Shown here: positions 5,412-43,745 of the stretch, piece after piece
How positions within the stretch are numbered: position 1 is the first letter of the stretch
How the letters are laid out: each line of letters begins with the position of its first letter
Virus record (IMG/VR): IMGVR_UViG_3300032331_002637
Location: 1 to 64,000 of that record
DNA: 64,000 bases
Source of the DNA: an uncultured virus (IMG/VR IMGVR_UViG_3300032331_002637)
Lineage: Duplodnaviria; Heunggongvirae; Uroviricota; Caudoviricetes
Reading direction: 5' to 3' (one strand)
Program-made: the position numbers and the translations under genes
Notes under the pieces: model-generated
Told to the model about the DNA's origin: nothing
The model's database searches: none
The model's input: only the letters and a program-made list of their open reading frames with translations

Positions 5412-5414
5412 TTC

Positions 5415-8212: not shown

Positions 8213-8216
8213 TATA

Positions 8217-9080: not shown

Positions 9081-9081
9081 T

Positions 9082-9699: not shown

Positions 9700-9700
9700 A

Positions 9701-10639: not shown

Positions 10640-10640
10640 A

Positions 10641-11444
10641 ATGATAAAGCCAATAGTACAGGATCTAATATTAAAAGGATGGGGTGTGGATCCTGATACA
10701 TATTTTGGAGAATATAATAAAAGAGTAGCTATAGAAATAGATCCTTTTCGTGATCCACATTGGATAAATGATGAGTCTTTATTTAAAGTAGTAGTTCAAG
10801 TTGAACCTCCGTCTGTAACTAATAAAGCAGTAGAACAGTATCTTGATGAGGAGGGAAATAAATTCGATCTTATTCTTACATATTATTCTTCTATTCTTAA
10901 ATCGAACAAGAAAGCTAAACTTTTTTATTTCGGTGACTCTTGGATAAAGAAGAAAAGCGAATCTATAGATAAAACAAGAAACGTTTCATTTGTAACATCT
11001 AACAAGAATTTTACTCCTGGGCATGCTGTAAGAATGAAGGTAGTTGATTCTCTTCACTTAGGATTAGCTAGATTTGATTTATATGGTAGGGGATTTAATC
11101 CTATAGAAAAAAAAGAAGAGGGACTTAATGACTATAAATTCTCTATAGTAATTGAGAATGAGTTTATGGAAAATTGGTTTACTGAAAAAATAGTCGATTG
11201 CTTTAGAACTAAAACAATCCCGATCTATAAAGGATGTCCTAATATTAAAGATTTCTATAATGAGAAAGGAATAATAAAATTTGATACTATGGAAGAACTT
11301 TACTCGATATTAAATGACATAAATTATAACGGGGATTCAATTTATGATTCGATGAGAGATTCAATGGAAAATAATTATAATAAATCATGGGCAGATCCTA
11401 CATTTAATGAAAGGGTAGAGATAGAGATAAAAAAATATTTATAG
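10641..11444 (+). CDS. GT10-like (alpha-1,3/4-fucosyltransferase-type) glycosyltransferase
   Basis: FVTSNK, DLYGRG, YKFSIVIEN...WFTEKIVDCF...IPIYKG. Confidence 0.85.
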   Translation: MIKPIVQDLILKGWGVDPDTYFGEYNKRVAIEIDPFRDPHWINDESLFKVVVQVEPPSVTNKAVEQYLDEEGNKFDLILTYYSSILKSNKKAKLFYFGDSWIKKKSESIDKTRNVSFVTSNKNFTPGHAVRMKVVDSLHLGLARFDLYGRGFNPIEKKEEGLNDYKFSIVIENEFMENWFTEKIVDCFRTKTIPIYKGCPNIKDFYNEKGIIKFDTMEELYSILNDINYNGDSIYDSMRDSMENNYNKSWADPTFNERVEIEIKKYL

Positions 11445-11456
11445 TGCGTTAATATC

Positions 11457-11993
11457 ATGAATAAGATTATAATTACAGATTTCGATGGAATTTTTACATC
11501 TCCGGGTTTTATTTACACAAAAGATGGAAAGATAGGTAAATTATTTTCACCTAATGACGGAGGAATTTATCATTTATTATTAGATAATTTAGAATATTTT
11601 GGATTATCGGATGTAATTATATTAACAGGTGAGGATAAATATGAGGGACTTGAAGTCACTGAAAAAAGACTAAGTGATCTTGGTCTTTTAAATAAGCTTA
11701 ATTTTTCCCCTGGTAAAGAAAAATATAATTGGATAAAATCTAGATATAAAATGAATGATGTAATATATTTTGGAGACGACCTTTATGATATAAATATTTT
11801 TAGCGAGTGCTTTTATTCTTGTACTCCTTTGCATTCACCGCTTATATTAAAACGAAATTCTTCTTATTCTTCTGGCTATAAAGGAGGAGAAGATGCTTTC
11901 ACTGACATGATCACACATGTTACAGAAGAAATTCTAAATAAGAGCATCACAGAAATAATAAATAAACAAAAAAAATATGATACTAAATCTTGA
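11457..11993 (+). CDS. kdsC: KdsC-like HAD phosphatase (Kdo-8-P phosphatase family)
   Basis: ITDFDGIFT, F..NDG, ILTG, YFGDDLYD, GGEDAF. Confidence 0.75.
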   Translation: MNKIIITDFDGIFTSPGFIYTKDGKIGKLFSPNDGGIYHLLLDNLEYFGLSDVIILTGEDKYEGLEVTEKRLSDLGLLNKLNFSPGKEKYNWIKSRYKMNDVIYFGDDLYDINIFSECFYSCTPLHSPLILKRNSSYSSGYKGGEDAFTDMITHVTEEILNKSITEIINKQKKYDTKS

Positions 11994-12585
11994 AAACATA
12001 GAAAGTAAATTTAATAATTTACTAAAATCTCCGGAATATAAAGAATTTATTAAGCAGATAAAAGAAGCAAAGAACATATACCTTGTTGGCAATGGAGGTC
12101 TTTGGTCAACAGCAAACCATGCTGCAGATGATTGCAATAGATTACTTACTAAAGCAGGAATTAATAAGATGTTTATTTCTATGGACAGTCAATGTCTAAT
12201 TACATCCGTAGCAAATGATTATGGGTACAACAATATATTTGTTAGATGGCTAGAACTTTTGAAAAAAAATAACACTAAATCATCAGAAACTATGGTTATA
12301 GGTTTATCCTGTTCTGGTACATCAAAAAATGTCATATCAGCTTTGCATTGGGGTAAAGAGAATGGATATAAGACATGTTTAATTTCTGGTCAGAAATCTG
12401 CAGTTATACCCGAAGATATGTTAGAGGTTTGTTTTGATACTGAATTTTTTCACACAACAGAAGTTTTATCTCTTATATTATTTTACCAAATAATCATTGA
12501 ATGTGGAGCTTCCTGTCCATCAATAAAAGAAGAAATTATAAGAAAAGGTGCTTCACAGCCATTAACAAGGCCTACAGACGAATAA
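11977..12585 (+). CDS. gmhA: GmhA-like SIS sugar-phosphate isomerase
   Basis: LVGNGG..STANHAADD, ITSVANDYGYNNIF, GLSCSGTSKNV. Confidence 0.75.
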   Translation: MILNLENIESKFNNLLKSPEYKEFIKQIKEAKNIYLVGNGGLWSTANHAADDCNRLLTKAGINKMFISMDSQCLITSVANDYGYNNIFVRWLELLKKNNTKSSETMVIGLSCSGTSKNVISALHWGKENGYKTCLISGQKSAVIPEDMLEVCFDTEFFHTTEVLSLILFYQIIIECGASCPSIKEEIIRKGASQPLTRPTDE

Positions 12586-13421
12586 TGTCATCTAAACAAT
12601 TTTCTGATATAATAGATAAAGAGAAAGGTAAGATTGGGCTAGTAATGGGATTAGGTCCTAGCTTAAAATTTGCTATACCCTATATAAAAAAACTTAAGAA
12701 TAAAAAAATTTCTAAAATATCATGCAACAATATAGATGTAATGTGTGATATTAAAATTAATTACTGGATACTTGCCCAGCCGACTGATTATCAGAATCCT
12801 TTACATATACCACTAGCTAAAGAAAGATATAATAAAATGGGTGCTACATTTCTTTATACTGATTGTCTCGATTTAACACCAAGAGATGAGGTTAAAGAAA
12901 TGTTAAATTCTATAGATTATATAGGATATGATCAAAGGCATATTAATTCCGAAAAATGTGGATGGTTAGATGTTCACGGAAGACCACCTTCCTGTTGTAA
13001 TGGTATTATAGATGGAAGACTTTGTATACAAGAAGAATTTCAAAAATATACTGGAAGTGATTATAAATACGGTGCTGGTGATACTGTTGGTGTTCATATG
13101 GTTGCTTTAGCTGTTATGTTAGGATTAAATCCTATCTACATATCAGGTATAGATTTAGATTATACTAATGGATATTTTAATAATGACTTTGAAGGTGAAG
13201 ATGGAACCAAAAAATTAGGAATGAGAATAGGTGAAAGAATAAAAATGGGAATGGATAGTATAAATAACTCTCCAGACATGGTAGACAGAATAATAATAGA
13301 CCTAACAATAATTAATGAATCTGCTAAAAAAATTGGTATTAAAATATATAATACAAGCAAAGAATCAAGACTCAGCGAGGTCTTTGATTATTTTGATATA
13401 AGTAAACTTTTAATAAAATAA
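12585..13421 (+). CDS. GT42 (CstII)/Maf-like ulosonic-acid transferase (start revised to 12585)
   Basis: MGLGPSL, SCN, GVHMVALAVMLGLNPIYISGIDLDY, matching CstII GNGPSL and GVYMCAVAIALGYKEIYLSGIDFY; ATG overlaps the upstream TAA. Confidence 0.72.
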   Translation: MSSKQFSDIIDKEKGKIGLVMGLGPSLKFAIPYIKKLKNKKISKISCNNIDVMCDIKINYWILAQPTDYQNPLHIPLAKERYNKMGATFLYTDCLDLTPRDEVKEMLNSIDYIGYDQRHINSEKCGWLDVHGRPPSCCNGIIDGRLCIQEEFQKYTGSDYKYGAGDTVGVHMVALAVMLGLNPIYISGIDLDYTNGYFNNDFEGEDGTKKLGMRIGERIKMGMDSINNSPDMVDRIIIDLTIINESAKKIGIKIYNTSKESRLSEVFDYFDISKLLIK

Positions 13422-13425
13422 GGGT

Positions 13426-14202
13426 ATGAGTAATTATCCTGAATGGGATTCATCCGCAGTAAATCCTGATATTTATATAGAAAAATATACCGATTACGTA
13501 AAAACTTCTGAGCTCCGAGAAATATTAGACGGAAAAACAGTAGCTATAGTTGGACCTTCATCTCATATATATGGACAAAATCTTGGTAATTATATAGACT
13601 CATTCGATGTTGTAGTGAGAGTGGGATTTTTAGAAGAACCTACAGAAATAGCTATGAAAGACTACGGTAGTAGAACCGATATAATAATACATTCATTTAA
13701 CTCATTTGAAATACCAGTTGCTTCCAGAAATATAGGTTACCTTTCTAAGTGTAAGCACATTATATGTGGAATGGTTTCTAGTGATTTTATAGATGACCAT
13801 AAATCTTTTTTTGATTCTTTAAGAGCAATAGGTATTAAAGTACAAAATGTAGACGATAGCTATTTATACGGATTTTTTAGAAGTGTTGGAACAATATGTA
13901 ATCTAGGAACAGTAGGAATAGAAATTATTCTTAAGTATGAAATTAAATCTCTTTTTGTTACTGGTATAAACTTCTATAACATGGGAAAATACGGTAAGGT
14001 ATACAACGAGGAATATTTCAATGTTGTTTCATCTAAAATGGGAGTTTACAAGAATGAACTTAATGGAATAGTTACTGGTATTTCAGCAAGATCTGATTTG
14101 CATTCGCAGAAACCTCAGATAGAGCATTTTAAATCAGTAGCTAGATCTGATGATAGAGTATTGTTGGATAAATATTTAGAAAATAATTTATTCGTTTCTT
14201 GA
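13426..14202 (+). CDS. GT29-like sialyltransferase-fold protein
   Basis: Sialylmotif-L-like VAIVGPSSHIYGQNLGNYIDSFDVVVRV...DYGSRTD; S-like LGTVGIEIIL...LFVTGINFY; late His (HSQKPQIE). Confidence 0.8.
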   Translation: MSNYPEWDSSAVNPDIYIEKYTDYVKTSELREILDGKTVAIVGPSSHIYGQNLGNYIDSFDVVVRVGFLEEPTEIAMKDYGSRTDIIIHSFNSFEIPVASRNIGYLSKCKHIICGMVSSDFIDDHKSFFDSLRAIGIKVQNVDDSYLYGFFRSVGTICNLGTVGIEIILKYEIKSLFVTGINFYNMGKYGKVYNEEYFNVVSSKMGVYKNELNGIVTGISARSDLHSQKPQIEHFKSVARSDDRVLLDKYLENNLFVS

Positions 14203-14787
14203 TCCTCCCCACCATACTAATTCATAATGAAATTTTGTATTGAATCCTAATTTATTTAGATCCTTTATAATTCTGTACATATATCCTTTTTTAATCCCCT
14301 TGTTTCTGTGGAATTGTATTTGTATATTTTGTACAAGGTCTAGACATTTATTTTCTATAAGATAAGGTACTAGGTCATATTCGTATCCTTCAATATTGAT
14401 CATTAGTACTGCTATTCTTTGATCTTTTATAAAATCTTTTGCGTCTTTGATTAATATTACTTCTTCACCTTCATTTGATATTGATGATCCATCTTCATCT
14501 AGATTTATTTTATTCTCTTTATTCTCTAGTCCTAATGCAAAATTGTGCACCTTAATTTTTTCTGGAAATACCACATACTCTATGAAGCTTTTTATTGGCT
14601 CGAATCCTATTCCATTACATCCATATTTATTGTACATATCAATAAGCCATTGACCTTTGTATGCACCAATATCTACTATTAGATCATCTGGACCTAAATT
14701 GTAATTCCTTAAATGATTCTGATCTCCCGAATCTCCGAACCATCTCTCAATGGTGCTTCTAAATTCGTTATCCTGTTTTGTACTCAT
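14188..14787 (-). CDS. FkbM-family methyltransferase
   Basis: VDIGAYKG, FEP, NFALG, INIEGYEY, IQIQFH. Confidence 0.88.
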   Translation of the reverse strand: MSTKQDNEFRSTIERWFGDSGDQNHLRNYNLGPDDLIVDIGAYKGQWLIDMYNKYGCNGIGFEPIKSFIEYVVFPEKIKVHNFALGLENKENKINLDEDGSSISNEGEEVILIKDAKDFIKDQRIAVLMINIEGYEYDLVPYLIENKCLDLVQNIQIQFHRNKGIKKGYMYRIIKDLNKLGFNTKFHYELVWWGGSRNE

Positions 14788-15932
14788 AGAATAGATTTTT
14801 TTATAATTTCTAAAGCTTCTTTAACCTCTTCGTCTTTTACTGCTAAATTTGGCCTAATTCTAATTGATGTATCGCCTGCAGAATTAACAAGTAATCCATT
14901 GTTTTTAGATCTAATGATAAAAGAATTTCTTTGTTCTTGATTTTTAAAATCGAAAGCTACCAACAGCCCACAAGATCTAACATTCATTAGACCAATTTCT
15001 TCTAGTCCTGTGTGTAATTTATATCCTTGTTTTATAGCATTACCTTTAAGATCTTTTTCTTTAATTGCTTTAATTATGTATGTGGACCTAATCATATCAA
15101 TAATATCACCATCCCATGTTACACAATATCTTGAAGGGTCTATAACTTTATCTGATATCTTTTGTATAGCCATTGCGCCAGATACCTGTGATTTTTTACC
15201 AAATATTAAAATATCTGGTTTATATCCATTATTTTCAAAGTACCACGTTTTACCCGAAGTACAAAATCCTGTTTGTATCTCATCATAAATAAGAGGTATA
15301 TCATATTTGTCTGCTATTTCTCTTAGTCCTTTAAAAAAACTCAAAGAATAATAAATGTCACCGTTTGTACATTGTATAGGCTCGAATAATATAGCAGATA
15401 TAGAAGGGTCTTTTTTAATTGAGTATTCTAAATCAACAAGGTCATTAAACTTTGGCCATACATTATCTCCTGGAAATCCGTTAAGTCTTTCGTAAACTCC
15501 TCCTTCTCTACCAGTTACTATATTTCCGTACGATGTTATTCCGTGAAAGCTTTTATTGTGGGATATTACCTTTGGGTTTTTTTTATCTGAATATTCAAAT
15601 GCCATCTTTACCGCATGTTCAACTGCAAGTGATCCAGTGCAAGTAAAATGCGGATTTTTAAAAATACTAAATGAAGAAAATTCCATAAAATCTTTTTCAA
15701 AAATTTCCCTTTCATCCGATGTATGCTCACAATTTGTTACTCTAATACCTGCCCATTTATTTACTGATTCTAAAAATTCTGGCCTCTTAAATACTTCATG
15801 ATTATATCCTAAAGCAAGTGAAGAATACATTGACATAAAATCTAAATAATTCTTTCCATCTAACTGATTATGTAAATAGCTATCCTGTGATTTTTTAGGA
15901 TCTATTTTTAAGTTGTATATGCTGTTTATCAT
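14784..15932 (-). CDS. Class III PLP aminotransferase (lysine-6-aminotransferase-like)
   Basis: YLDFMSMYSSLALGYNH, TGSLAVEHAVK, SFHG, EPIQ, DEIQTG, FGKKSQ, IRIRPNL. Confidence 0.9.
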   Translation of the reverse strand: MINSIYNLKIDPKKSQDSYLHNQLDGKNYLDFMSMYSSLALGYNHEVFKRPEFLESVNKWAGIRVTNCEHTSDEREIFEKDFMEFSSFSIFKNPHFTCTGSLAVEHAVKMAFEYSDKKNPKVISHNKSFHGITSYGNIVTGREGGVYERLNGFPGDNVWPKFNDLVDLEYSIKKDPSISAILFEPIQCTNGDIYYSLSFFKGLREIADKYDIPLIYDEIQTGFCTSGKTWYFENNGYKPDILIFGKKSQVSGAMAIQKISDKVIDPSRYCVTWDGDIIDMIRSTYIIKAIKEKDLKGNAIKQGYKLHTGLEEIGLMNVRSCGLLVAFDFKNQEQRNSFIIRSKNNGLLVNSAGDTSIRIRPNLAVKDEEVKEALEIIKKSIL

Positions 15933-17047
15933 ATTTTTGTAATATCACCCGTGTATATGTGATCAACATCTTCTCTAGAAACTGCTAATCTGATAGCTGG
16001 CACATTCCCTGTAGCCTCTATTCTATGAATTCTATTTTTTTCTATAAAAACTATATCGCCTTCTTTAACATGTTTATTTACCCCCTCTATTTCAAATATC
16101 CATTCGCCTTTAATAATTAGCCACCATTCGTTCCAATCTGCATGATAATGTCTTCTATTACCTTCTCCTGGATTTTGACATATTAGACAAGCGCTGTTGC
16201 TTTCAGTATTTACTAATCTTTTACTCCATGATTTTTGGTCCATTGAATTTATAACATCATATATGTTTAAAATCTCTTTATTCGAATCATTTAAATCGTT
16301 ATATTCTACACCATCTTTAGCCAATATACTAGGAACGTCATTTTCTTTATGAAAATCTATAGAATCTTTTTCTTTCCTTTGTATATGTTCTGCTATTATT
16401 TCTGCAATATTAAAATCTTCTTCGTTGTCAATGTCGACTGTTGAAAATCCTTTTAATTCAAAAGTGTCCTTTGGATAATCTCCCCCGTGATATGCAGCTC
16501 CATACATTTTCATGTTTTTCTTGTATTCTTCTGTGGTCCATGCCATTAATGAACATGCATAAGCTTTTATGGGTTCTAAATCTTGTGAAGGTGGTGTTAT
16601 CTTAGTGGGATCAAAGTTAATAGGATTATCTTTATAAATAGATTCTATTTGTACATTTTTAACTGATATTAATGTATTAACATCTCCTTTTTTAATTCTT
16701 TCGACAAATGCTATTATTTCTTCCGGGGTAATAAAAGGTGAAGTTGGTAATATTTGAACTAAAATATCACAATCTACTTTATAAATAAACTCTTGAGCAA
16801 AATGATCATTTGTAGCATCATCGCTTGAGAGATGCTCTGGCCTTTTATGAAATTTTATACCGCTTTTTTCTGCAATTTCTTTGAATATATCAGACTCTGA
16901 ATTTATGTATATTTCATCAAAAACACCGGATGCTTTAACTGCATCAATTGGATATTGAATTAGTTTTTTGCCTAATATCTTTCTAAGATTTTTTTTAGGA
17001 ACTCTTTTGCTACCCATTCTTGCGGGAATCATTGCTACTATTTTCAT
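15929..17047 (-). CDS. NeuA-type acylneuraminate/Kdo cytidylyltransferase fused to a C-terminal cupin
   Basis: IPARMGSKRVPKKN, LPTSPF, VDIDNEEDF; cupin HYHADWNEWWLIIKG...GDIVFIEKNRIHRI. Confidence 0.9.
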   Translation of the reverse strand: MKIVAMIPARMGSKRVPKKNLRKILGKKLIQYPIDAVKASGVFDEIYINSESDIFKEIAEKSGIKFHKRPEHLSSDDATNDHFAQEFIYKVDCDILVQILPTSPFITPEEIIAFVERIKKGDVNTLISVKNVQIESIYKDNPINFDPTKITPPSQDLEPIKAYACSLMAWTTEEYKKNMKMYGAAYHGGDYPKDTFELKGFSTVDIDNEEDFNIAEIIAEHIQRKEKDSIDFHKENDVPSILAKDGVEYNDLNDSNKEILNIYDVINSMDQKSWSKRLVNTESNSACLICQNPGEGNRRHYHADWNEWWLIIKGEWIFEIEGVNKHVKEGDIVFIEKNRIHRIEATGNVPAIRLAVSREDVDHIYTGDITKI

Positions 17048-17064
17048 ATGTAAGTAATTTAGTT

Positions 17065-17107
17065 TATATATTTTACTCGAAACCTATATGATTATTTCAT
17101 GTATAAT
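17065..17107. promoter_or_regulatory. Divergent promoter region inside the glycan island
   Basis: AATATATA on minus (17072..17065); GAAAC(17079)-N18-TATAAT(17102) on plus. Confidence 0.55.
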
Positions 17108-17122
17108 AATAAAAAAAATAAT

Positions 17123-17752
17123 ATGAACTTAAATAAACAAGAAGATGAGTACAACTGGAAAAATTACACTCCGGAATATTCCGATCAATTAATAGGAATG
17201 GTTAAAAACGAGGGTTTTGATTTTTTTGTAAAAAACTACGAAATAATTAACGACAGCCCAGTTTTTCATGATAATTTAGTTAGTAACTGGAAAGAAATAT
17301 ACTCTCTTATTTATAAAATAAATCCTAAGAGTATTTTTGAATTCGGGTGTGGTGCTTGTTATCATTTAAGAAATATTATGACATTATGCCCTGATATTAA
17401 AGTTTCTGGAGCGGATTATCTAGGAACACAGATAGAATTCGGTAAAGAATTTATTCCAGAGGGTATGGAATTTCCTAAAAATGTATCTGTTAGAGATTTA
17501 ACAGAAGATGTATCAGATATACCTAAAGCAGAATTAGTCTATTCACAAGCAGTAGTTATGCACTTAAACTCAGAGAAGGCTGTAAAAATGATGCAGAACA
17601 TGGGTGAGGTAGCAGAAAAATATATAATAATGGTTGAGGGCGTAAGGAATCACGAGAATTGGTATGAGCTTGTTAATTATGCTTTACCAGATTGGAAAAT
17701 GACTTTAACTAATAATTACATTGATTACGGTATAATATTAGAAAGAAAATGA
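17123..17752 (+). CDS. Class I SAM-dependent methyltransferase (start probably 17123)
   Basis: IFEFGCGACYHL, GAD, YSQAVVMHL; the 17099 ATG lies within the putative promoter. Confidence 0.8.
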   Translation: MNLNKQEDEYNWKNYTPEYSDQLIGMVKNEGFDFFVKNYEIINDSPVFHDNLVSNWKEIYSLIYKINPKSIFEFGCGACYHLRNIMTLCPDIKVSGADYLGTQIEFGKEFIPEGMEFPKNVSVRDLTEDVSDIPKAELVYSQAVVMHLNSEKAVKMMQNMGEVAEKYIIMVEGVRNHENWYELVNYALPDWKMTLTNNYIDYGIILERK

Positions 17753-18918
17753 AAAATGTAAAATTGGTATCAGACACAATATCAAAAAATGATATAGAAA
17801 AACTAGTGACGTGGATGTCACAAGATGATATACCACAATTAACAAAAGGTCCTTTAACAATAAAATTTCAGAATGACTTCTCTAATTTTTTAGGTGAAGA
17901 TTTAAGAAGCTGTTTTATTAATTCGGGATCATCTGCTATTCTTTTATCTCTTCTTGCTCTTAAGATAAAGAACAATATAAAAAAAGTTGTTGTACCTTCA
18001 GTTTCTTGGGCAACGGATTTAAGCAGTCCTATGGTTCTTGGATTAGAAACTATATTGTGTGATTGTAACTTACAAGATCTATCATTAGATCTGGACAAAT
18101 TAGAAAAAATCTTTCAGGAAGAAAGTCCAGAGGTTTGTATATTAGTTTCTGTATTAGGATTAGTGCCTGATATGGAGCGTATAATGAGTCTTTGTAAGAA
18201 ATATAGCGTTATTCTTTTGGAAGATGTTTGCGAGAGCTTAGGATCAAAATATAAAGGTGATTACCTTGGAACTTTTGGTCTTATGTCATTCTTTTCTTTC
18301 TATTATGGTCATCATATAAGTACCATAGAGGGAGGAATGATTACAACAGAAGATAAAAACATGCATGATATTTTAGTTTCTATACGTAATCATGGATGGG
18401 ATAGAGATTGGAGTGAGGATCTAAAAAAAGAATATCGAGAGAAATACGGAATTGATTCTTTTTCTAGCATGTATGCTTTCTATTTTCCTGGACTAAATCT
18501 CAGATCTACTGATCTTCAAGCATTCCTAGGAATAAATCAGATAGAAAAAATAGAACCTTTTTCCTCAGTTAGAAATAGAAACTTTCTTAAATATTCGGAA
18601 CTTATAAAAGAAAACTATTTGAACGTTAATCAGAGAGATGGCGATTTCGTTTCTAATTTCGCTTATCCTGTAGTACACTCAGAAAGAGCTTCAATCATTG
18701 CTAAGATTAAAGAGCATAATATAGAAGTTAGACCTCTTATTGCAGGATCTATGGCTAAGCAACCATTTGCAACAGGGGTTAATAAAAAATATGGAACTGG
18801 TAATTCTGATATAATTCACGAGAAAGGATTTTATTTACCTAATCACCAGGATTTATCTTTAGAGCAGGTTGAGTTCATTGCATCTTTGGTTAATTCAGAA
18901 AAAAATAATTTAAAATGA
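17749..18918 (+). CDS. colD: DegT/DnrJ family, ColD-like GDP-4-keto-6-deoxymannose 3-dehydratase
   Basis: [37 protein letters not shown] (His at the usual Schiff-base Lys position), RNHGW, RPLIAG; no Fe-S Cys cluster. Confidence 0.8.
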
Positions 18919-19922
18919 AAAAAGCTATAATAACAGGAGTTAACGGGCAAGACGGAAGTTATCTTGCTGAACTCCTTCTCGATAAAGGATATGAAGTACA
19001 CGGTACTATTAGAAGATCCTCATCTTTTAATACATGGAGAATAGATCATATTAGATCTCATGAAAATTTTCATTGGCACTATGCTGATGTTACAGATCCT
19101 GTATCTATTAGTAACCTTATATCTAGAATAAAGCCAGAAGAATTTTATAATTTAGCTGCTCAAAGCCATGTTAAAATTTCTTTTGAAATTCCTTACTATA
19201 CAGGACAAGTTGATGCTATAGGAACACTTAATGTACTTGAAGCAATAAGAACGCATTCGCCAATTACTAAGCTTTATCAAGCATCAACATCAGAACTTTA
19301 TGGAAAAGTTCAAGAAATACCACAGAATGAAAATACACCTTTTTATCCAAGAAGCCCTTATGGAGTTGCTAAGCTTTATGGATTTTGGATAATAAAAAAC
19401 TACAGAGAAGCATACGACATATTTGCATGCAACGGAATTCTTTTTAATCACACATCGCCAAGAAGAGGAGAAAACTTTATGGAGAAAAAGATTGTAGATT
19501 CTCTTGTAGCTATTCACAAAGGGGGTAAAGAAATTCTTAAGCTTGGGAATCTTGATGCTAAAAGGGATATTGGTCATGCTAAAGAATATGTTGAAGGCAT
19601 GTGGAGAATGCTTCAACAAGAAACCCCCGAAGATTTTGTTCTTGCTACTGGTATGTGTTTTTCTGTAAGAGAAATAGTTGAAACCGTTTATCAAATTTTA
19701 GGTAATAAAATAAGATGGGAAGGGGAAGGACTAGAAGAAAAAGGTTTAGATGTGGAAACTGGAAAAATCGTAGTTTCTATAGACCCTAAATATTTTAGAC
19801 CTTCGGAGGTTGATCTACTAATTGGTAATCCTAAAAAAGCTAAAGATATTCTTGGGTGGGAAAGTAATAGCACAATTGGGGGAATTTTAGAAGAGATGGT
19901 TAACGAGCAAATCAAAAAATAA
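18915..19922 (+). CDS. gmd: GDP-mannose 4,6-dehydratase
   Basis: [61 protein letters not shown]. Confidence 0.97.
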
Positions 19923-20509
19923 TGGACTATAAAGGTTTAATTGAAAAAGAAATAGAGTATTTAAGAAAGATACCAACCGAAAGAATTGGCGATATAGTAA
20001 GAATAATAAATTCAAATCTAAAAAGCGGAAGAATAATAACTTCCGGTATGGGAAAGGCAGGACAAGTTGCTAATACCTTTGCAACTACACTCTGCTCTAC
20101 AGGAACCCCTTCTTTTTTTCTACATCCTGCAGAAGCTCAACATGGAGATCTTGGTATGATAATGCCAGGAGATATAATTATAGTTTTTAGTAACTCAGGA
20201 AAAACTAGAGAAGTTATAGAGCTTATAGAACTTGTACATTCTTTAGAATATAATAATATTATATTTGGTGTTATAGGAAAAAGAAATGCTCAATTAGATC
20301 TAATATTTGCAGATTATATTGAATTTGGTGAGGTGGAAGAAATATGTCCTCTTGGATTAACACCAACCACTTCAACAACTTGTATGTCAGTTATTTGTGA
20401 TCTTATGGTAGTTGGAATAATGGCTAATAAAGAATTTACCAAAGAAGAATACGCAAAATTCCATCATGGCGGATATTTGAATTTAAAGGCTAAAGGAATT
20501 TCTAATTAA
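19922..20509 (+). CDS. kdsD: Arabinose-5-phosphate isomerase (KdsD/KpsF), SIS domain only
   Basis: SGMGKAG, STGTPSFFLHPAEAQHGDLG, SNSGKT, CPLGLTPTTSTT, FHHGGYL; no CBS pair. Confidence 0.9.
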   Translation: MDYKGLIEKEIEYLRKIPTERIGDIVRIINSNLKSGRIITSGMGKAGQVANTFATTLCSTGTPSFFLHPAEAQHGDLGMIMPGDIIIVFSNSGKTREVIELIELVHSLEYNNIIFGVIGKRNAQLDLIFADYIEFGEVEEICPLGLTPTTSTTCMSVICDLMVVGIMANKEFTKEEYAKFHHGGYLNLKAKGISN

Positions 20510-20527
20510 GATAATTTAATAATAGAA

Positions 20528-20986
20528 ATGAATAAAACGATAGGAATTACTTGCTCTACTTTTGATCTTTTACATACTGGACATATAATTATGCTAGAGG
20601 AGTGTAAAAAATACTGCGATTATTTAATATGCGCAATACAAGTTGATCCCTCATTAGATAGAATTGGAAAAAATAAACCAGTGCAGTCTTTAATTGAAAG
20701 GTACATACAATTAGATGCTGTTAAGTATGTTGATAAGATTATACCATACACTAATGAGAAAGAGCTTGAATTAATATTTATGTCATTAGATTTAGACGTT
20801 AGAATTATAGGTGAAGAATATAAGGATATAGATTTTACAGGTAAGAATATTTGTATAAAAAGAAATATTAAATTAATATACAATAAAAGGGAGCATAATT
20901 TTTCTACAACTAATTTAAGAAAATCAATATACTTAAATGAATTAAATAAAGAATTAGAAAAAAATAATAAGCCGGATGGAAATTAA
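20528..20986 (+). CDS. TagD-like (glycerol-3-phosphate) cytidylyltransferase family
   Basis: TFDLLHTGH (HxGH), KNKP, VKYVD, R.HNFSTT. Confidence 0.88.
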   Translation: MNKTIGITCSTFDLLHTGHIIMLEECKKYCDYLICAIQVDPSLDRIGKNKPVQSLIERYIQLDAVKYVDKIIPYTNEKELELIFMSLDLDVRIIGEEYKDIDFTGKNICIKRNIKLIYNKREHNFSTTNLRKSIYLNELNKELEKNNKPDGN

Positions 20987-21764
20987 ATATAATAAGATTC
21001 TTATAGCAGGTCCTTGCGTAATTCAAAGTTGGGACACTTGTTATGAGATAGCTATTGAAATTAAAAGATGTGCACTTCTGTATAATTTTACACCTATCTT
21101 CAAAGCAAGTTTTGATAAAGCTAATAGAACTTCGTCTAATGGATTTAGAGGCGTTGGTATAGATAAAGGATTAGATATACTATCTAAGATCAAACAGAGG
21201 CTAGATATACCTGTTATAACGGATGTACACGAAACTGAACAAGTTGAGCAAGTAGCATCAGTTGTGGATTACTTACAAGTTCCTGCTTTTTTGTCTAGAC
21301 AGACAGATCTTATTGAAGCATGTGCTAAAACAGGATTACCTGTGTTAGTTAAAAAAGGACAATTTCTTTCTCCTGAAAGTTGTAAATTCATTGAGGATAA
21401 ATTTTACAAAGCTGGGGGTACACAATTACTAATAGGTGAAAGGGGTAACAGCTTTGGGTATAATGATTTGATAGTTGATGTCACATCAATTTCTAGATTA
21501 AAAAAATCCTGCGAAAATTCAAAGATTATAATGGATTGCACACACAGTCTGCAAAGACCCAATGGAATTTACGGAAAGACAGAAGGGAGAGGTGATATGA
21601 TCGAAGAGATGGTAAAATATGCTTCAGTAATGAATGCTGATGGAATATTTATAGAAACACATCCATACCCAGAACTCTCCCCGTCGGATTCTGAAAATAT
21701 GTTAGAACTTAGTAAATTTGAAAATATAATAAAAAAATCAAGATCGATATATGATACCCACTAA
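20976..21764 (+). CDS. kdsA: Kdo-8-phosphate synthase, metal-dependent type
   Basis: IAGPCV, FKASFDKANRTS, TDVHE, QVPAFLSRQTDL, KKGQFLSP, ERGNSFGYNDL, DCTHSLQRP, FIETHP. Confidence 0.95.
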   Translation: MEIKYNKILIAGPCVIQSWDTCYEIAIEIKRCALLYNFTPIFKASFDKANRTSSNGFRGVGIDKGLDILSKIKQRLDIPVITDVHETEQVEQVASVVDYLQVPAFLSRQTDLIEACAKTGLPVLVKKGQFLSPESCKFIEDKFYKAGGTQLLIGERGNSFGYNDLIVDVTSISRLKKSCENSKIIMDCTHSLQRPNGIYGKTEGRGDMIEEMVKYASVMNADGIFIETHPYPELSPSDSENMLELSKFENIIKKSRSIYDTH

Positions 21765-22467
21765 ATTAATGGATATAGTGATTGTTAGCTATGCTAAAGA
21801 TGACTACTGTAAGGGTTTAACTGAAAATTGTATAAAGTCAATTCTAGAGTCAGAAAATTATTCTGAGAAGCTATTTAATATAATTGTTGTTGAATCTGAA
21901 CCTGGTGTAAAATGGGAACATCTATCCGATATAGTTCACACATTTGAAGCTCCTTTACCTTATGGTTATCACAAATTTCTTAACTTTGGTAGAAAGCAGG
22001 GAAATTCACAATTCGTTGCTCTCTGTAATAATGATTTAGAATTTAAAGAAAAATGGTTTACTAATATAATGAAAGCATCTGTTATGGAATCTGATGTCAT
22101 ATCATTTTCTCCTATATGTCCGATGACTCAGACAATTTACGAGATATACGAGCACTCAGGAAATATTGAAGGATACGAAATAAGAAAACATATATCTGGA
22201 TGGTGTATAATACACAAGAGGGAAATTTATAATATAATTGGGGATCTTGATGAAAGATTTCATCATTGGTTCTGTGATAATGATTATTCAATGGAGCTTC
22301 AATATCATGGACTTAAACACATGCTTGTCACTGATTCAATTGTGATACATCACGATAAAAATATAGGAAAAACCACAGAAAGAGTTATAACTGATAGAAA
22401 TCAGATGTATGATATGACTAGTGGTTCTTTGCCTATCTTTCAAGAAAAATGGAGAAATAAAATATAA
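21751..22467 (+). CDS. GT2 glycosyltransferase
   Basis: DIVIVSY, LNFG, LCNND, GWCII, IGDLDERF, FCDND. Confidence 0.85.
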   Translation: MIPTKLMDIVIVSYAKDDYCKGLTENCIKSILESENYSEKLFNIIVVESEPGVKWEHLSDIVHTFEAPLPYGYHKFLNFGRKQGNSQFVALCNNDLEFKEKWFTNIMKASVMESDVISFSPICPMTQTIYEIYEHSGNIEGYEIRKHISGWCIIHKREIYNIIGDLDERFHHWFCDNDYSMELQYHGLKHMLVTDSIVIHHDKNIGKTTERVITDRNQMYDMTSGSLPIFQEKWRNKI

Positions 22468-31481: not shown

Positions 31482-32420
31482 ATGAGCTTAGTTAATAGAG
31501 AAAAATTAGAAAGACCAAATACGGAGATAACTCATTATTTAGGTGTTGTGGTCGATAATAAAGATCCAGAATTTAGAGGAAGAGCAAAGATACGTGTTTT
31601 TGGACTATTTGATCAAATAGAAGATGTGGATCTACCTTGGTCACATCAAAGATTTGAGATGAGCTACGGATTAGGCGGGGGATCTGGTAGAATATCTGTT
31701 CCTAAGTTAGGTTCAGTAGTTCATGTGCAATTTAATAATGGTAACTATTATAGTCCAGAATATAAAGCAGTACAGGAATTATCACCAGATTTAATAGATG
31801 AGATAAGAGTTAGTTATGATGGTGCTCATTCTCTTATATACGATGGTATAGAAAGATTAAAAATGTACTATACTGTAGAGAAAGGTCTTGTAATAGATTT
31901 GAAAGATTCTAAAATTATAATAAGGAATGATAATTCTATACTAATAACTCACGCAGATGATACAGCTTCAATAGAATTAAAAGGAGGTAAAATAACTAAA
32001 TATGCAGATCAAGAGATAGAGAATACTGCGGTTACTAGAATTAAACATTCTTCTGAAGAGGTTTGGATGGATGGTAAAACAACTAATCTTGGACACTCTC
32101 CTGTTTTTTCTGCTGTATGTGCAGAACCTCTTTGGGACTTCTTAAAAAAATTAGCTATATCAGTAGACAGTAAAATGCCAGCTACACCTGGTGTTAATTC
32201 AACACTAGCATCTAGCTTTGAACAATTAGCAACAAGCCAAACAGTAAGGGTTACTAGAGAAAATACACCAGATCTTCCTACTACGCCAGCACAGAATAAT
32301 ACTCCTGTATCATTACCTAATACTGGACCTACTGGAATATTAGGAATTACTGGATTAACTGGACCTAATGGAATAACTGGACCAAATGGAATAAACACTA
32401 CAGGAGCTACGGGAGGATAA
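31482..32420 (+). CDS. Baseplate central spike, gp5 N-terminal OB-fold / gpV-like, no lysozyme domain
   Basis: YLGVVVDNKDPEFRGRAKIRVFG, LPWS, SVPKLGSVVHVQFNNGNYYSPEY; beta-strand repeats; G-x-x tail. Confidence 0.88.
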   Translation: MSLVNREKLERPNTEITHYLGVVVDNKDPEFRGRAKIRVFGLFDQIEDVDLPWSHQRFEMSYGLGGGSGRISVPKLGSVVHVQFNNGNYYSPEYKAVQELSPDLIDEIRVSYDGAHSLIYDGIERLKMYYTVEKGLVIDLKDSKIIIRNDNSILITHADDTASIELKGGKITKYADQEIENTAVTRIKHSSEEVWMDGKTTNLGHSPVFSAVCAEPLWDFLKKLAISVDSKMPATPGVNSTLASSFEQLATSQTVRVTRENTPDLPTTPAQNNTPVSLPNTGPTGILGITGLTGPNGITGPNGINTTGATGG

Positions 32421-37593: not shown

Positions 37594-37600
37594 AAACTTG

Positions 37601-37629
37601 GAAATTTTATCTACTCTTAATACTAAAAT
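37601..37629 (+). promoter_or_regulatory. GAAAY-N18-TAWAAW putative promoter of the S1 gene
   Basis: GAAAT at 37601, TAAAAT at 37624. Confidence 0.5.
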
Positions 37630-37649
37630 AAATACAAACTCTAAATAAA

Positions 37650-38759
37650 ATGAAAAATAAAAATTTTAGCTGCTTTGAATATGAAGCAAATGAAAGAGAA
37701 AGATTGAAAAATCTTTATTCTGAAACTTTCCCTGAGACAGACACAAAGATGTCAGGTAAAGATTTACAAGAGAATAGCTCAGAAAGAATTGTAGTTACTG
37801 GATATGATAGCGAAAAAGGAGTAGCATTAGGCGAAACTGCATTCGGACAAACAATTATAATCGATACAAAGAAGGAAGAAAAGCATATGAGAAAGCTTGG
37901 GTATCCTGCTATAGAAATTATACCAGGACAGGTTCTTGATGTTGTTATTCACAAAGATGCCTCGGGATCATTCAACGGATCTGTTTCAGCAGGATATGAG
38001 AAAGCTTTAAAAATAGAATTGCATAGATCTATTAGAGAAGAAGACTGCGCATTTAAAGTGAAGGTTAAAAATGTTTGTAATGGAGGATTTATAGTTGATC
38101 TTTCAGGTATTGAATGCTTCTTACCTGGTAGTTTAGCTGCTGCTAATAGAATCATGAACTTTGCTGATTATGTTGGAAAAGATCTCACTGTTATGATAGA
38201 GATATACGATCAAAAGAGAGATATTTTTGTTGTATCGTTTAAAAAATATCTTAAAAAGATTATTAATTCTGAAGTGAAAAATCTTTCATTCTCTAAAAAA
38301 TATGAAGGTAAAGTTACAGGAGCTTCTGGAAATAATATTTTTGTTGAATGGGAAGAAATCTATACAGGTATTATTTCAATTGACGAAAACAACAGAACAA
38401 AATTAGAAGCTTTACAAACAGGGGATTTAGTTGAATTTTATGTTGTAGATATTAAAAATCCGCAAAGAATAGGTCTTTCTATTTTAGAACCTAATGATAA
38501 GTTAAAGAATATTCAAAATTTAAAAGATACCTCATCTCAAGTTTTAGGCGAAAATACTGAATTAAAAACTTACAAAGCAGAGATTACTAAATTAAAGACA
38601 TTTGGTGTGTTCGTTAAAATCGAGAATGGTCTATCCGGACTTATCGAAAAAGAAAAATTGGTAAAAGATATTAAAGACTACGAAGTTGGTCAATCTGTTA
38701 ATTGTTCAATATCGAGTGTAGATACAGCTACTCTTAAAATACAATTGACCGAGGTTTAA
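37650..38759 (+). CDS. rpsA: Phage-encoded ribosomal protein bS1 homolog (about 4 S1 domains)
   Basis: GGFIVDLSGIECFLPGSL...YVGKDL...FVVSFKK matches bS1 domain 2; KLKTFGVFVKIENGLSGLI...YEVGQSV is a canonical S1 domain. Confidence 0.82.
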   Translation: MKNKNFSCFEYEANERERLKNLYSETFPETDTKMSGKDLQENSSERIVVTGYDSEKGVALGETAFGQTIIIDTKKEEKHMRKLGYPAIEIIPGQVLDVVIHKDASGSFNGSVSAGYEKALKIELHRSIREEDCAFKVKVKNVCNGGFIVDLSGIECFLPGSLAAANRIMNFADYVGKDLTVMIEIYDQKRDIFVVSFKKYLKKIINSEVKNLSFSKKYEGKVTGASGNNIFVEWEEIYTGIISIDENNRTKLEALQTGDLVEFYVVDIKNPQRIGLSILEPNDKLKNIQNLKDTSSQVLGENTELKTYKAEITKLKTFGVFVKIENGLSGLIEKEKLVKDIKDYEVGQSVNCSISSVDTATLKIQLTEV

Positions 38760-38787
38760 TATTAATATTTAATAATATTTTTGAATT

Positions 38788-38820
38788 AGAGTTTTACTTA
38801 TAAGTAAAACTCTTTTTTTT
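38788..38820 (+). terminator. Rho-independent terminator after the S1 gene
   Basis: AGAGTTTTACT-TATA-AGTAAAACTCT inverted repeat followed by a T run. Confidence 0.85.
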
Positions 38821-38929
38821 GTGATTATCTAGAGGTAATTTATTATCGTTTTTAATTGATAATACAAATAAGAAATAAAGATATAAAAAGCTAAAAGGGT
38901 TTATCTTTTCTTTTACGAATATATAGTAT

Positions 38930-40357
38930 ATGGATATTAGCACAAGAGATTTTTTATACTCTGCCCAATGTGGTTTTGAATTTGAGTTTTTTAGTAACTT
39001 AAATAGAAACGAGATAGCAGATTCGCTAGGGAAAACTTTAGGTAAAAAAATTCTTCTATTTAGTAAGTATCATTCAGGTTTTAAACCCACTAAGGATATT
39101 TTTAAATTAGAACCAGATTACTCAGGAGGATCTAAGATGACCGAATTAATAACTGGGCCTTTACCTTATTTTGAAGCGATAGTGATTCTTATAAAGACTC
39201 TTAAGTGGATTGATATGTATGGATATACAGATAAGAAATGTGCATTCCAATTTGGAATAAGCATCGATACATCTATATTCCCTGAGGTTCCTCCGGTATC
39301 TCAAATAAACCCTCTTAAATTTATTTTAGGATTCGATGAGAATATTATCTATAAAAGATTCCCAGAAAGAGCTGGATCTTTGTATGCTAAATCTATAAAA
39401 AGAATATTACCTGCTAATAAATTTGTAGATCCTTCAAATATTTCATTTATAGATAAGAATCTTTTCGAAATACCAGTAGAAAAAAATATGGGTATAAATT
39501 TTACTAAATTATCGGATGGATATTTTGAAGTGAGATATTTAGGAGGTAAAGATTACCAGAGGAAGTACTCAAGTATAAAAGAAATATTAGATTATATAAT
39601 AACATATACTATACAGACTCTTAAGTTTAATAATTCATTCACAGATAATGATTTAAAAGTTCTTAAAATGTTCTTAGCAGAGATCTATAAGAGTTCTTCG
39701 ACATTTATAGATCCTGAATCTTTTCAAAAGAATTACCCACATTTAAATATAATGGTAGATCTTAGATCGGATCCACAAATAGTTAGAACATTTTTCCTGA
39801 CTATTAGAGAAATTCTTTATGATATTATTGTAGATAATGGTATTAAAGAAGGTGTTATTAATTATGATAGTTCATTAGGTAAATTTCAATTGAAGGACGT
39901 AAAAACTACAAGAGCTTATTTACTTAAAGATTATGATATTCTTAATAGTGAAATTTCAGGAAATATATTGAATTGTAGGTTGTTTTCGTGTGATCTTAAC
40001 GACTGTGCTGTTGAAGATTGTGATCTAGTTACTAATAATGAAGTTAAGCGATCTAAGATCATGTATTCGGATATTATGTTTAGTAATGTAGTACACGAAA
40101 CTTATATTGATAACAAAGAGAAGGAAATAAACTGTGAAGTATTTGGTGGAATAATTAGATCCGGGTATATTGGAAAACTTGCTACAATTTCACCAGAGAC
40201 TGAAATAGTTAAAGATGCTGAAGACGATAAAAAAATGAAGGGAAGTTCTAAAAAGAAAGGATTTCCTGATAGAAATGACGGGGAAGCATTATCTAAACCT
40301 GTTAGATTTAGTAACAATAATAGTAAGCCCTCAGGAATTCCTGGGACTAGCTTCTAA
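38930..40357 (+). CDS. Putative amidoligase (COOH-NH2 ligase, Amidoligase_2-like) with a beta-helix-like C-terminus
   Basis: CGFEFEF, KLEPDYSGG, ELITGP, GINF, FEVRYLGG; AATATATA motif at 38918..38925. Confidence 0.7.
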   Translation: MDISTRDFLYSAQCGFEFEFFSNLNRNEIADSLGKTLGKKILLFSKYHSGFKPTKDIFKLEPDYSGGSKMTELITGPLPYFEAIVILIKTLKWIDMYGYTDKKCAFQFGISIDTSIFPEVPPVSQINPLKFILGFDENIIYKRFPERAGSLYAKSIKRILPANKFVDPSNISFIDKNLFEIPVEKNMGINFTKLSDGYFEVRYLGGKDYQRKYSSIKEILDYIITYTIQTLKFNNSFTDNDLKVLKMFLAEIYKSSSTFIDPESFQKNYPHLNIMVDLRSDPQIVRTFFLTIREILYDIIVDNGIKEGVINYDSSLGKFQLKDVKTTRAYLLKDYDILNSEISGNILNCRLFSCDLNDCAVEDCDLVTNNEVKRSKIMYSDIMFSNVVHETYIDNKEKEINCEVFGGIIRSGYIGKLATISPETEIVKDAEDDKKMKGSSKKKGFPDRNDGEALSKPVRFSNNNSKPSGIPGTSF

Positions 40358-42047: not shown

Positions 42048-43745
42048 ATGGATTTATTAGATAAGAACAAAGCAAAAATATCAGATCTATTATCACAGAC
42101 TTTTGATTTAATACAGGCAAGATATGGCATGTCTGAGCAACTATTTACTGTTGCTTCTGTTTGGGGACAAATAATATTTGTATTAGATAATCTATCCCAA
42201 TTTATTTTATTCTTTATTGAAGATTCAATAACAGAGCTTAATATAAATACAGCAACACGAGAATCATCTATATACGGATTAGCAACATTAGCTGGACACA
42301 ACCCAACAAGATCAATAGCAGCAAAGGGTGAGATTATAGTAAAATGGAACGGTAAAGGTCTAGAAAATATTGGGGGTGGAGCTATTCTTATACCCAATAA
42401 TGCACAGGTAAAATGTGTAAACAATGGTAGAACCTATCTTCTTAAATTAGGACAAGAATATGTTAGGATAAATCTTGATAACACAGCAACTTTATCTGCT
42501 TCAATAATAGAAGGAACATTAAATACTAATCAATATACAGGAACAGGAAGAAAATTAGAAAGCTTTAATATATCGGCTAGAGGTACATCAGGAATAGAAA
42601 ATTTTGAAGTTGCTGTTAGAGTAAACGGTAACACATGGAAGAAATATGATTCTTTATATGATATACCAAGAAATGCAAGAGGCTATATCGTAAAAAGTTC
42701 TTTAATATCAGGTATAGATATTTTCTTCGGTACAGTAGATTTTGGGTTTCCCCCACCAGCTGGTTCTATAATAGAAGTTGATTATTTAGAGTGTGCTGGA
42801 GCGGGTGGTAATTTATTAGTAGATGATTCATCTCAAGCTCTTTTTAAATTTGATTCAGACGGAACTGATATATTTGGTAGAAATGTAACACTGAGTGAAG
42901 TTCTACAAGTTGCCTGTACAATAGCTCCACAATTGGGAGCTAGTCAAGAGCCTATAGATTTAACAAGACTTCTTGCACCTAAAACATCTAGAAGTTTTGT
43001 TTTAGCAAACCCTACAAATTATATAACATTCTTCGAAAAATTTGGACAGTTTTCAATCATAGAAGCATTTACTACTTTTGATGATCAATACTTAGATGAC
43101 GATAATATTATCTATTTAATTCTTGTACCCGATATTCAATTAACACTAAAAACTAATGAAACATATTTTGATATTTCTCTTTCTAGATTCAAATTAACTA
43201 ATGCTCAAAGAGATAGGATTTATCAGTTGTTAGATGAGAGTGGACAAAAAATAGTTACTACTGTGGTAAAAATATTAGATCCCGTACTTATTAAATATGT
43301 AGTAAATATTGCTTTAACTATATTTGAAGGTAATGATCCTTCCACAATAAAAAACCAAATAACTAGTATTTTAAGCGATTATTTTCTTAATATAAGAAGA
43401 AGAGATAAGATACCTAGATCTGATTTAATTGCAGCAATAGAGTCTATTTCTGGTGTGGATTCAGTTTCTCTTTACTTTGTAGGTGAGGCTAATGAATCGG
43501 CCAAATTACAGAGTCCAAATTCTCCGGATATTGGATTTGATGAATTTGGTGATATTGTTATGGGTAAAGACGAAATTGTTGTTATATCCGGAGGATGGGA
43601 AGATAGAAATGGTATTTATTATGACTATGGAGCTGGTATGGACACTTTATCTTCTGTGAATATAGATGTTAGATCTATTGTACCAGTAACTTATAACACT
43701 AAGGTAAATAATATATTAAAAAGCTCACTAAATACAGGAAACTAA
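42048..43745 (+). CDS. Baseplate wedge gp6 / baseplate-J-like protein
   Basis: ELNINTATRESSIYGLATLAGHNP, IFFGTVDFGFPPPAGSIIEVDY...GAGGN, LIAAIESISGVDSV; follows gp25. Confidence 0.85.
   Translation: MDLLDKNKAKISDLLSQTFDLIQARYGMSEQLFTVASVWGQIIFVLDNLSQFILFFIEDSITELNINTATRESSIYGLATLAGHNPTRSIAAKGEIIVKWNGKGLENIGGGAILIPNNAQVKCVNNGRTYLLKLGQEYVRINLDNTATLSASIIEGTLNTNQYTGTGRKLESFNISARGTSGIENFEVAVRVNGNTWKKYDSLYDIPRNARGYIVKSSLISGIDIFFGTVDFGFPPPAGSIIEVDYLECAGAGGNLLVDDSSQALFKFDSDGTDIFGRNVTLSEVLQVACTIAPQLGASQEPIDLTRLLAPKTSRSFVLANPTNYITFFEKFGQFSIIEAFTTFDDQYLDDDNIIYLILVPDIQLTLKTNETYFDISLSRFKLTNAQRDRIYQLLDESGQKIVTTVVKILDPVLIKYVVNIALTIFEGNDPSTIKNQITSILSDYFLNIRRRDKIPRSDLIAAIESISGVDSVSLYFVGEANESAKLQSPNSPDIGFDEFGDIVMGKDEIVVISGGWEDRNGIYYDYGAGMDTLSSVNIDVRSIVPVTYNTKVNNILKSSLNTGN

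Follow-up and report, generated by a model that had tools for sequence, protein, structure and literature searches.

Copies of ribosomal proteins carried by phages blur the line between virus and cell, and the idea is that phages can use them to direct translation in the host. A viral bS1 was mentioned in 2019 as a metagenomic hint (PMC6375957, in the part of the text accessible to us), and in 2020 huge phages were described that carry 'possible rpS1' genes in Shine-Dalgarno (SD)-poor genomes, with a proposed role in initiation (Al-Shayeb 2020, Nature, PMC7162821, likewise cited from its accessible part). An earlier note on the DNA studied here had pointed out that S1 homologues are known from huge phages, and in this it was right; phage S1 genes and their link to SD-poor genomes have thus been in print since 2020, and the gene presented here adds detail while leaving that picture unchanged. 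According to the available portions of two further reports, the bS1 of PhiMa05, a jumbo phage of Microcystis, groups with Vampirovibrio ribosomal proteins, which was read as capture from a host-like lineage (ISME J 2026, PMC13157829), and bS21 of freshwater Bacteroidota phages is encoded among structural genes, is expressed late and is argued to substitute into host ribosomes late (Chen 2022, PMC9723584). The former of the two also cites autoregulation of rpsA in E. coli. Our literature searches for experimental or structural studies of a phage S1 found none. The contacts of cellular bS1 are described for E. coli, where F5 and F9 stack on F32 of uS2, K43 enters the uS2 zinc pocket of D188, N203, D204 and D205, F79 stacks on H18 of uS2, and K117, F120 and F130 form the mRNA pocket of OB2 (PMC10123108, accessible part). 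In the same organism, OB1 to OB3 are enough to bind the 30S subunit, to bind mRNA and to melt RNA, as stated in the available text of PMC3858243.

The window analysed here is a stretch of 64 kb, the first part of a virus record of 119,756 bases with an estimated completeness of 43%. On its plus strand, an ORF of 369 aa with an ATG start (37650..38759, stop codon included) encodes the phage bS1 homologue that had been proposed for this place; the span 37601-38820 named in the earlier note takes in this ORF together with its flanks. Pfam S1 (PF00575) matches the protein at 3.3e-15, with three S1 matches within the single ORF, and when solved structures were searched with it the best 10 matches were all bS1 (E. 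coli bS1 at 1e-18). The protein stays far under every NCBIfam rpsA cut-off, the best being TIGR00717 with 81.5 bits vs 577, and it scores sub-cut-off on all 11 '30S ribosomal protein S1' models as well as on the fused IspH/S1 model; three Bacteroidota bS1 used as a control reach 780-940 bits on NF004953 (cut-off 720). By the curated standard, then, the phage protein counts as homologous to bS1 but not as an orthologue. The NCBIfam sub-models were also considered as a guide to lineage, but several of them give phage S1 64-82 bits, the model favoured by Bacteroidota bS1 is NF004953, and no lineage is indicated. Judged by its sequence, the homology of the protein to bS1 is genuine, though its divergence is very strong.

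The architecture of the protein follows from an alignment of 36 members of the phage family, on which both an AlphaFold model (mean pLDDT 82.9) and our conservation counts are based, and from a profile-profile comparison (hhalign) of that family with 20 Bacteroidota bS1 sequences (probability 99.4, E 3.9e-21). The model consists of a helix at residues 13-26 followed by four OB domains, which it places at residues 43-111, 135-196, 217-277 and 308-368. The hhalign match is colinear from the N-terminal motif to OB4 (bS1 columns 24-376 of 619) and stops after OB4, leaving the phage protein without OB5, OB6 and tail; with four OB domains against the six tandem OB/S1 domains of Bacteroidota and Proteobacteria bS1, it is indeed shorter than six-domain bS1, as had been pointed out. 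At the N-terminal end, where the hhalign match starts, a motif and the modelled helix (residues 6-27; 37665..37730, this and the following domains on the plus strand) resemble the docking helix of Bacteroidota bS1, with Tyr11 and Tyr23 invariant. The OB1-like domain (residues 43-111; 37776..37982), delimited by model and hhalign, is divergent, contains insertions and is missed by Pfam S1. The OB2-like domain (residues 131-196; 38040..38237) carries the GGF...CFLPGS signature. The third OB/S1 domain (residues 212-279; 38283..38486) is the weakest Pfam match, with 16.8 bits under a cut-off of 22, in agreement with the divergence ascribed to it before, and it is the fourth (residues 306-369; 38565..38756) that Pfam S1 matches best. 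In the phage family, the aromatic S1 motifs FVEW and FGxF are invariant (OB3 and OB4, with FGxF in the fourth domain).

Conservation is unevenly distributed over these parts. OB2 had been named as the best-conserved part, and it is: its mean top-residue frequency is 0.84 and 29/66 of its columns are invariant, the bS1 OB2 signature is present, and the other parts range over 0.55-0.78, with the helix after OB2 second (0.78) and the docking helix least conserved (0.55). The Bacteroidota OB2 motif given in the earlier note does occur in Bacteroidota bS1 (L117). In structural comparisons, Foldseek with the phage S1 model returned E. coli bS1 chains on top (9gut_B, 2e-22), and VIA-align placed residues 20-280 of the model on residues 2-261 of the ribosome-bound E. 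coli bS1 chain 9gux_B (Z 13.3, rmsd 6.4, 247 residues aligned). Ribosome-bound OB1-OB2 chains align with the model at Z 10.7-11.6, with model residues 19-24 opposite chain residues 1-3, and OB2 aligns with the S1 fragment on Q-beta replicase (4q7j_D) at Z 10.8 (rmsd 2.2, 91 residues).

Residues at the contact sites were mapped through a MAFFT alignment of E. coli bS1 with phage and Bacteroidota sequences. By sequence alignment, Tyr23, invariant in 36/36 family sequences, stands opposite E. coli F9, and F5 falls on Leu19; by structural offsets, F5 is opposite Tyr23 and F9 opposite Phe27, a position that is Phe in 29/36. The helix register is ambiguous by one helical turn and the aromatic pair is matched at sequence level only, yet in either register an invariant aromatic is predicted to face uS2. 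In the mRNA pocket of OB2, E. coli F120 and F130 correspond to phage F147 and F157, both invariant, and K117 corresponds to Asn144 (Asn in 32/36, Pro in 4/36). Opposite K43 the invariant pair Gly66-Gln67 is found in the MAFFT alignment and by the strand order of the model; only hhalign puts Lys75 there, a nearly invariant residue (Lys in 35/36 family sequences). On the side of the probable host, 22 uS2 sequences from Bacteroidota all share the pocket residues D188, N203, D204 and D205. The docking helix with Tyr23 and the OB2 Phe pair are kept; Lys43 has no clear counterpart.

The protein belongs to a large family. A word-indexed protein search gave 449 relatives; the 120 of the 449 that were listed are mostly 366-407 aa long, with a few shorter fragments, at 48-98% identity, and among the matches listed many bear the JGI name 'ribosomal protein S1', with contigs of up to 320 kb. 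An exhaustive search of cluster representatives yielded 1417 proteins at E <= 0.001, the best 150 of the 1417 being all at most 449 aa long. In IMG/VR, 170 contigs encode an S1 relative, and homologues are present in 15 records of Lak phages as well as in six of uncultured huge phages; that of LR756500.1 is 27.6% identical over 82% of the query. GTDB contributed one genome, a Saprospirales MAG in which one 64-kb contig carries a copy at 36% identity and a normal 578-aa bS1 is found elsewhere. To judge by its occurrence on 170 viral contigs and by its fixed genome position, the family is under selection. Among cultured relatives of the phage (Flavobacterium MaF61, Chryseobacterium MA9V-1/2, Tenacibaculum pT24 and Sphingomonas PAU) no S1 match was found, which indicates that the gene is dispensable for the phage group.

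The earlier note had proposed a phylogeny with bS1. In such a phylogeny the protein comes to lie outside cellular bS1. A quick tree built by maximum likelihood from 57 rows places 16 cellular bS1 (15 Bacteroidota and E. coli) on one side and all 41 short S1 proteins on the other, separated by a branch of 2.22 changes per column with an SH-aLRT of 100; the cellular references come from two phyla only, and the tree cannot name a donor lineage. Given the length of this branch, the family is old or fast-evolving and does not stem from a recent capture.

The genomic position of the gene is constant. The baseplate context noted before is confirmed by PHROGs, which identifies a hub gene (31482-32417) and a wedge gene (42048-43742) on either side of S1, and S1 lies between baseplate hub and wedge genes at all 80 loci examined. 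The order in related loci is hub, a 1723-aa gene, S1, a 475-aa gene and a 259-aa gene. The last two are present in 80/80 loci, the 1723-aa gene in 75/80 and the hub gene likewise in 75/80, its five misses being loci that are cut short. The 475-aa product of the downstream neighbour (38930..40357, +) has a glutamine-synthetase-like amidoligase domain and a C-terminal beta-helix; this gene follows S1 at every one of the 80 loci, directly in 76. In the published 462-kb phage LR756500.1, hub, S1, amidoligase and 259-aa gene stand in the same order. In the five related records searched, no gene except S1 has S1 domains, and one of the five (G033) has a bS21 gene in addition to S1. A relative measures 248 kb with a completeness of 85%. 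The 119.8-kb record showed neither a tRNA gene nor any further translation gene.

Downstream of S1, an intrinsic terminator with an 11-bp stem, a 4-nt loop and 8 T occupies 38788..38821 on the plus strand (stem 38788-38813). Its stem is the longest among the terminator-like sites in the 12 kb scanned, its fold has an energy of -13.1 kcal/mol (z -4.29; 0/200 shuffles equally stable), and 5/11 of its pairs show compensatory changes among 10 distinct relatives. The terminator is real, and its earlier description as clean was apt. The same note had also made S1 a stand-alone transcription unit; this agrees with the terminator present here, but the arrangement is kept in only 17/80 loci. A gap of at least 40 nt after S1 exists in only 21/80 related loci, of which 17 hold a homologous hairpin and T-run followed by GAATATATAG right before the next gene; of the remaining four, three have an extra ~530 nt and one has its hairpin split by a 1.65-kb insertion. 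In 59/80 loci, the next gene abuts S1 and starts within a few bases of its stop, often with TTG. In the window, the GAATATATAG motif is located at 38917..38926 (+), with its end 3 nt ahead of the next gene's ATG. Several genes of the phage have it in front of them, and it is a possible late promoter. The very short leaders of this phage are those after GATATATAG.

Four metatranscriptome libraries of freshwater origin, drawn from four studies, contain only short matching contigs (154-272 nt, 90-99% alike), which give no starts, ends or strand, may include DNA carry-over and say nothing of the parts that they leave uncovered. Contigs starting at 37573 and 37592 cross the region just upstream of S1 into the gene, which weakly suggests that transcription reads through from the gene before it, unless DNA carry-over is the cause. 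S1 is probably a late gene, since it sits in the late baseplate module and is read with the next gene in most relatives.

The region crossed by these contigs is the 56-nt gap between the 1723-aa gene and S1, and it harbours an element composed of TTGGAA, 17 nt and TACTAAAAT (37598..37629, +). In 21 aligned relatives, TGGAAAT, then 17 nt, then ACTAnAA are conserved upstream of S1, with invariant positions G27, A29, A30, T31, T50, A51 and A54. A promoter-like motif of its own had been claimed for the gene; conservation upholds the motif, but its likeness to a promoter fares less well, as a scan with the sigma-70 consensus found no site within the 56-nt gap, and over the region the number of promoter-like sites (57) shows no enrichment over shuffles (63.3 +/- 7.7). 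The element is the sole intergenic match in the 119.8-kb record. Two candidate explanations were tried and rejected. As a general promoter class, it gave 9 matches in five related records vs 5 in the reversed control, with only the two S1-upstream sites alike. As a conserved hairpin, TTGGA...TCCAA can be formed by many of the relatives (-3.8 to -6 kcal/mol), but the gap of the window folds at 0.0 kcal/mol. Being neither a sigma-70 site, nor a stable hairpin here, nor repeated elsewhere, the element is best regarded as gene-specific control; it could be a dedicated promoter or an mRNA operator. Around the S1 gene, Rfam gave no match at gathering level, and one sub-threshold match (E 0.061) lies inside the next gene.

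Food for discussion is what the phage might gain from such a protein in its host. The host is likely a freshwater member of the Bacteroidota, in view of the SD-poor ORFs, the matches of a conserved 1165-aa phage protein, the Bacteroidota-like N-terminus of S1 and the freshwater RNA pieces. The 1165-aa protein matches 31 phage records, 23 of them from Bacteroidota phages (Prevotella Lak 15, Tenacibaculum 5, Chryseobacterium 2, Flavobacterium 1), the others being 2 of Sphingomonas phage PAU and 6 uncultured. The phage leaders had been called SD-less with good reason: 106/116 ORFs are without an SD core, and the regions upstream of ORFs are A-rich and G-poor. The accessible part of PMC7797042 describes the mRNAs of Bacteroidota themselves as lacking SD-led initiation, and bS1 as thought to be especially important in these SD-less bacteria, in which it is loosely bound; bS1 is probably limiting there, as far as that source goes. 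With phage and probable host both SD-less, 'SD-less leaders' do not separate phage from host messages, and no basis for selective translation is visible. The proposal that the phage protein redirects ribosomes to SD-less, A/U-rich leaders is therefore unsupported, as we see no feature that distinguishes phage from host. The family is widespread and probably comes from phages of a phylum whose initiation is thought to rely on bS1, with Shine-Dalgarno pairing switched off.

Of the functions that can be imagined for this protein, we lean, with some reserve, towards a ribosome-bound stand-in for bS1 that is made late. Going by its residues and model, phage S1 would bind the host 30S at uS2 as bS1 does, and OB2 to OB4 would keep A/U-rich, unstructured leaders in place on the side where mRNA exits. 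It could add to the loosely bound host bS1 or take its place, and it would act while the phage makes structural protein in bulk. Homology, domain order, conserved residues, genome position and the terminator are shown here, whereas ribosome binding, the time at which the gene is expressed and any gain for phage messages are what we infer. Counted against the stand-in are the missed rpsA cut-offs, the branch of 2.22, the doubtful counterpart of K43 and the cultured relatives without S1. Some of these points would suit an RNA-binding protein that works off the ribosome, with OB1-OB2 as a handle for a phage or host enzyme and OB3-OB4 binding RNA, where their task might be to stabilise, chaperone or regulate phage messages. 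Q-beta replicase uses OB1-OB2 of the host S1 as a protein-binding part, and OB2 of the phage protein matches the S1 fragment on this replicase. Moreover, OB2 and the helix that follows it are by far the most conserved and the docking helix is the least, so that a partner other than uS2 also fits; the Lys43 contact is not clearly kept, and the long branch from cellular bS1 points the same way. Nonetheless, the Bacteroidota-type N-terminal helix motif with its invariant Tyr11 and Tyr23 is hard to explain without docking to uS2, and no candidate partner has been identified, which makes a role off the ribosome, in our estimation, the less probable of the two by a clear distance.

The retained docking end and the absence of OB5, OB6 and tail could also befit a competitive blocker, which would occupy the bS1 site on uS2, alter or lower host initiation and so aid host shut-off. 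This we hold to be improbable: three OB domains give full S1 activity in E. coli (PMC3858243, available text), from which a four-domain form should be active, and a position in the late structural operon is ill-suited to host shut-off. That same position, between hub and wedge genes in 80/80 loci and in the same order in LR756500.1, together with the abutting next gene in 59/80 loci and its frequent TTG start, might instead speak for a role in the virion or its assembly, in which an OB-fold descendant of bS1, belonging to the baseplate module, would now be structural or packaged. Phage S1 has no PHROGs match at all, structural or other, its bS1-specific docking and RNA-binding residues are invariant, and the published bS21 case is one of a ribosomal gene that sits among structural genes and is itself non-structural; a virion role accordingly seems very improbable to us. 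Equally far-fetched at present is the idea that S1, produced along with baseplate and tail proteins, is carried in the particle, enters the next cell with the DNA and primes host ribosomes in favour of phage messages before phage expression, and weaker still is a variant in which the adjoining amidoligase has the S1 copy, or else a ribosomal protein of the host, as its target for covalent modification; both rest only on the fixed place between the baseplate hub and wedge genes. The bS1 stand-in, for its part, takes a concrete and testable form in the present family: a compact four-domain protein with a docking helix, in which Tyr23, Phe27, Phe147 and Phe157 can be mutated.

How, then, does the family compare with systems described so far? 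In size it comes close to NF005208, a model of 391 positions which we take to represent the four-domain bS1 of low-GC Gram-positive bacteria. Length and the number of four S1 domains are similar, and the match extends over residues 92-366; however, phage S1 reaches 78.2 bits vs a cut-off of 368 and is not a member. With the bS1 of Bacteroidota and E. coli it has in common the helix, the order of OB1-OB4, the GGF...FLPGS signature of OB2 and aromatics at the uS2-stacking and mRNA-pocket positions. It differs from them in its 369 aa vs 578-739 aa, in its 25% identity to E. coli bS1, in a changed K43 loop and in ~9 extra residues between helix and OB1. The rpS1 of Al-Shayeb 2020 (PMC7162821) is like the present family in being a multi-S1-domain protein encoded by a large phage with an SD-poor genome. 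It has up to six S1 domains against four here, and the accessible part of that paper contains neither a domain map nor an analysis of docking residues; the present family adds a Bacteroidota-bS1-like N-terminal motif and a fixed place in the baseplate module. The protein of PhiMa05 is, like ours, a bS1 of a jumbo or large phage, whereas the family described here, together with other short metagenomic S1 proteins, makes up a deep clade of its own. Finally, bS21 is a different protein, and its late expression was measured, whereas that of the present S1 is predicted from position; it nevertheless offers a likeness in several respects, as both are proteins of the 30S platform or initiation region whose genes lie among the core structural genes of large freshwater Bacteroidota phages.

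The gene that directly follows the phage S1 homologue (window 38930-40357) encodes a protein of 475 aa, with a glutamine-synthetase-like amidoligase in residues 1-256 and, fused to it at the C-terminal end, a beta-helix (about 288-430). VIA gave Z ~10 against glutamine synthetases, at an rmsd of 3.6 over 173-183 residues; for the Pup ligase PafA and for Dop, Z was 7.5-8.1. Pfam Amidoligase_2 was matched weakly by 13 of the 18 members of the protein family (best E 7.5e-4).

The S1 terminator itself could be a site where genes insert preferentially, a hot spot. At the S1 locus of a relative that is 95% identical (L006), an insertion of 1.65 kb (7110-8761) interrupts its hairpin and carries an ORF of 420 aa, which, judging by an N-terminal signature, looks like an S-adenosylmethionine synthetase. 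Another ribosomal protein homologue was found in a related 245-kb phage record (G033), whose S1 is 47% identical and which also encodes a bS21 homologue (G033:C1:18962-19114; 47.8 bits, 69-aa frame); bS21 had no match in the closer relative G032 (248 kb), searched alongside.

Elsewhere in the window, genes for sugar nucleotides and cell-surface polysaccharides form a long block (4602-22464). Several glycosyltransferases, a GDP-mannose 4,6-dehydratase, cytidylyltransferases, a SIS isomerase and aminotransferases are encoded here, together with a DAHP_synth_1 family enzyme that we assume to be KDO-8-phosphate-synthase-like. Presumably the block serves an auxiliary function, modifying the surface of the host. 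Beyond the window, the same virus record contains a gene for a DnaJ chaperone of full length, in which the J domain, the CXXCXGXG domain and the C-terminal domain are all present (record positions 104048-105106; L153 3828-4883). Genes of the MoxR-like AAA, DUF2201 metallopeptidase-like and VWA-like types occur in the phage as two sets. Its family B DNA polymerase appears to be divided between two ORFs about 18 kb apart (record positions 89479-90885, L152 9092-10495, and 109159-110334, L153 8939-10111), one comprising the exonuclease and the beginning of the polymerase domain, the other a later part of that domain.

Upstream of the amidoligase gene lies the motif GATATATAG (window 38917-38926), and in relatives the order is likewise S1 terminator, then motif. 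It also precedes the genes that begin at positions 66237, 70012, 86184 and 105445 of the record, with the variant TATAAATAG in its place at one site, and at several genes exactly 3 nt separate the end of either form from the ATG. Should the motif be a late promoter like TATAAATA of T4, the messages downstream would be leaderless, or almost so.
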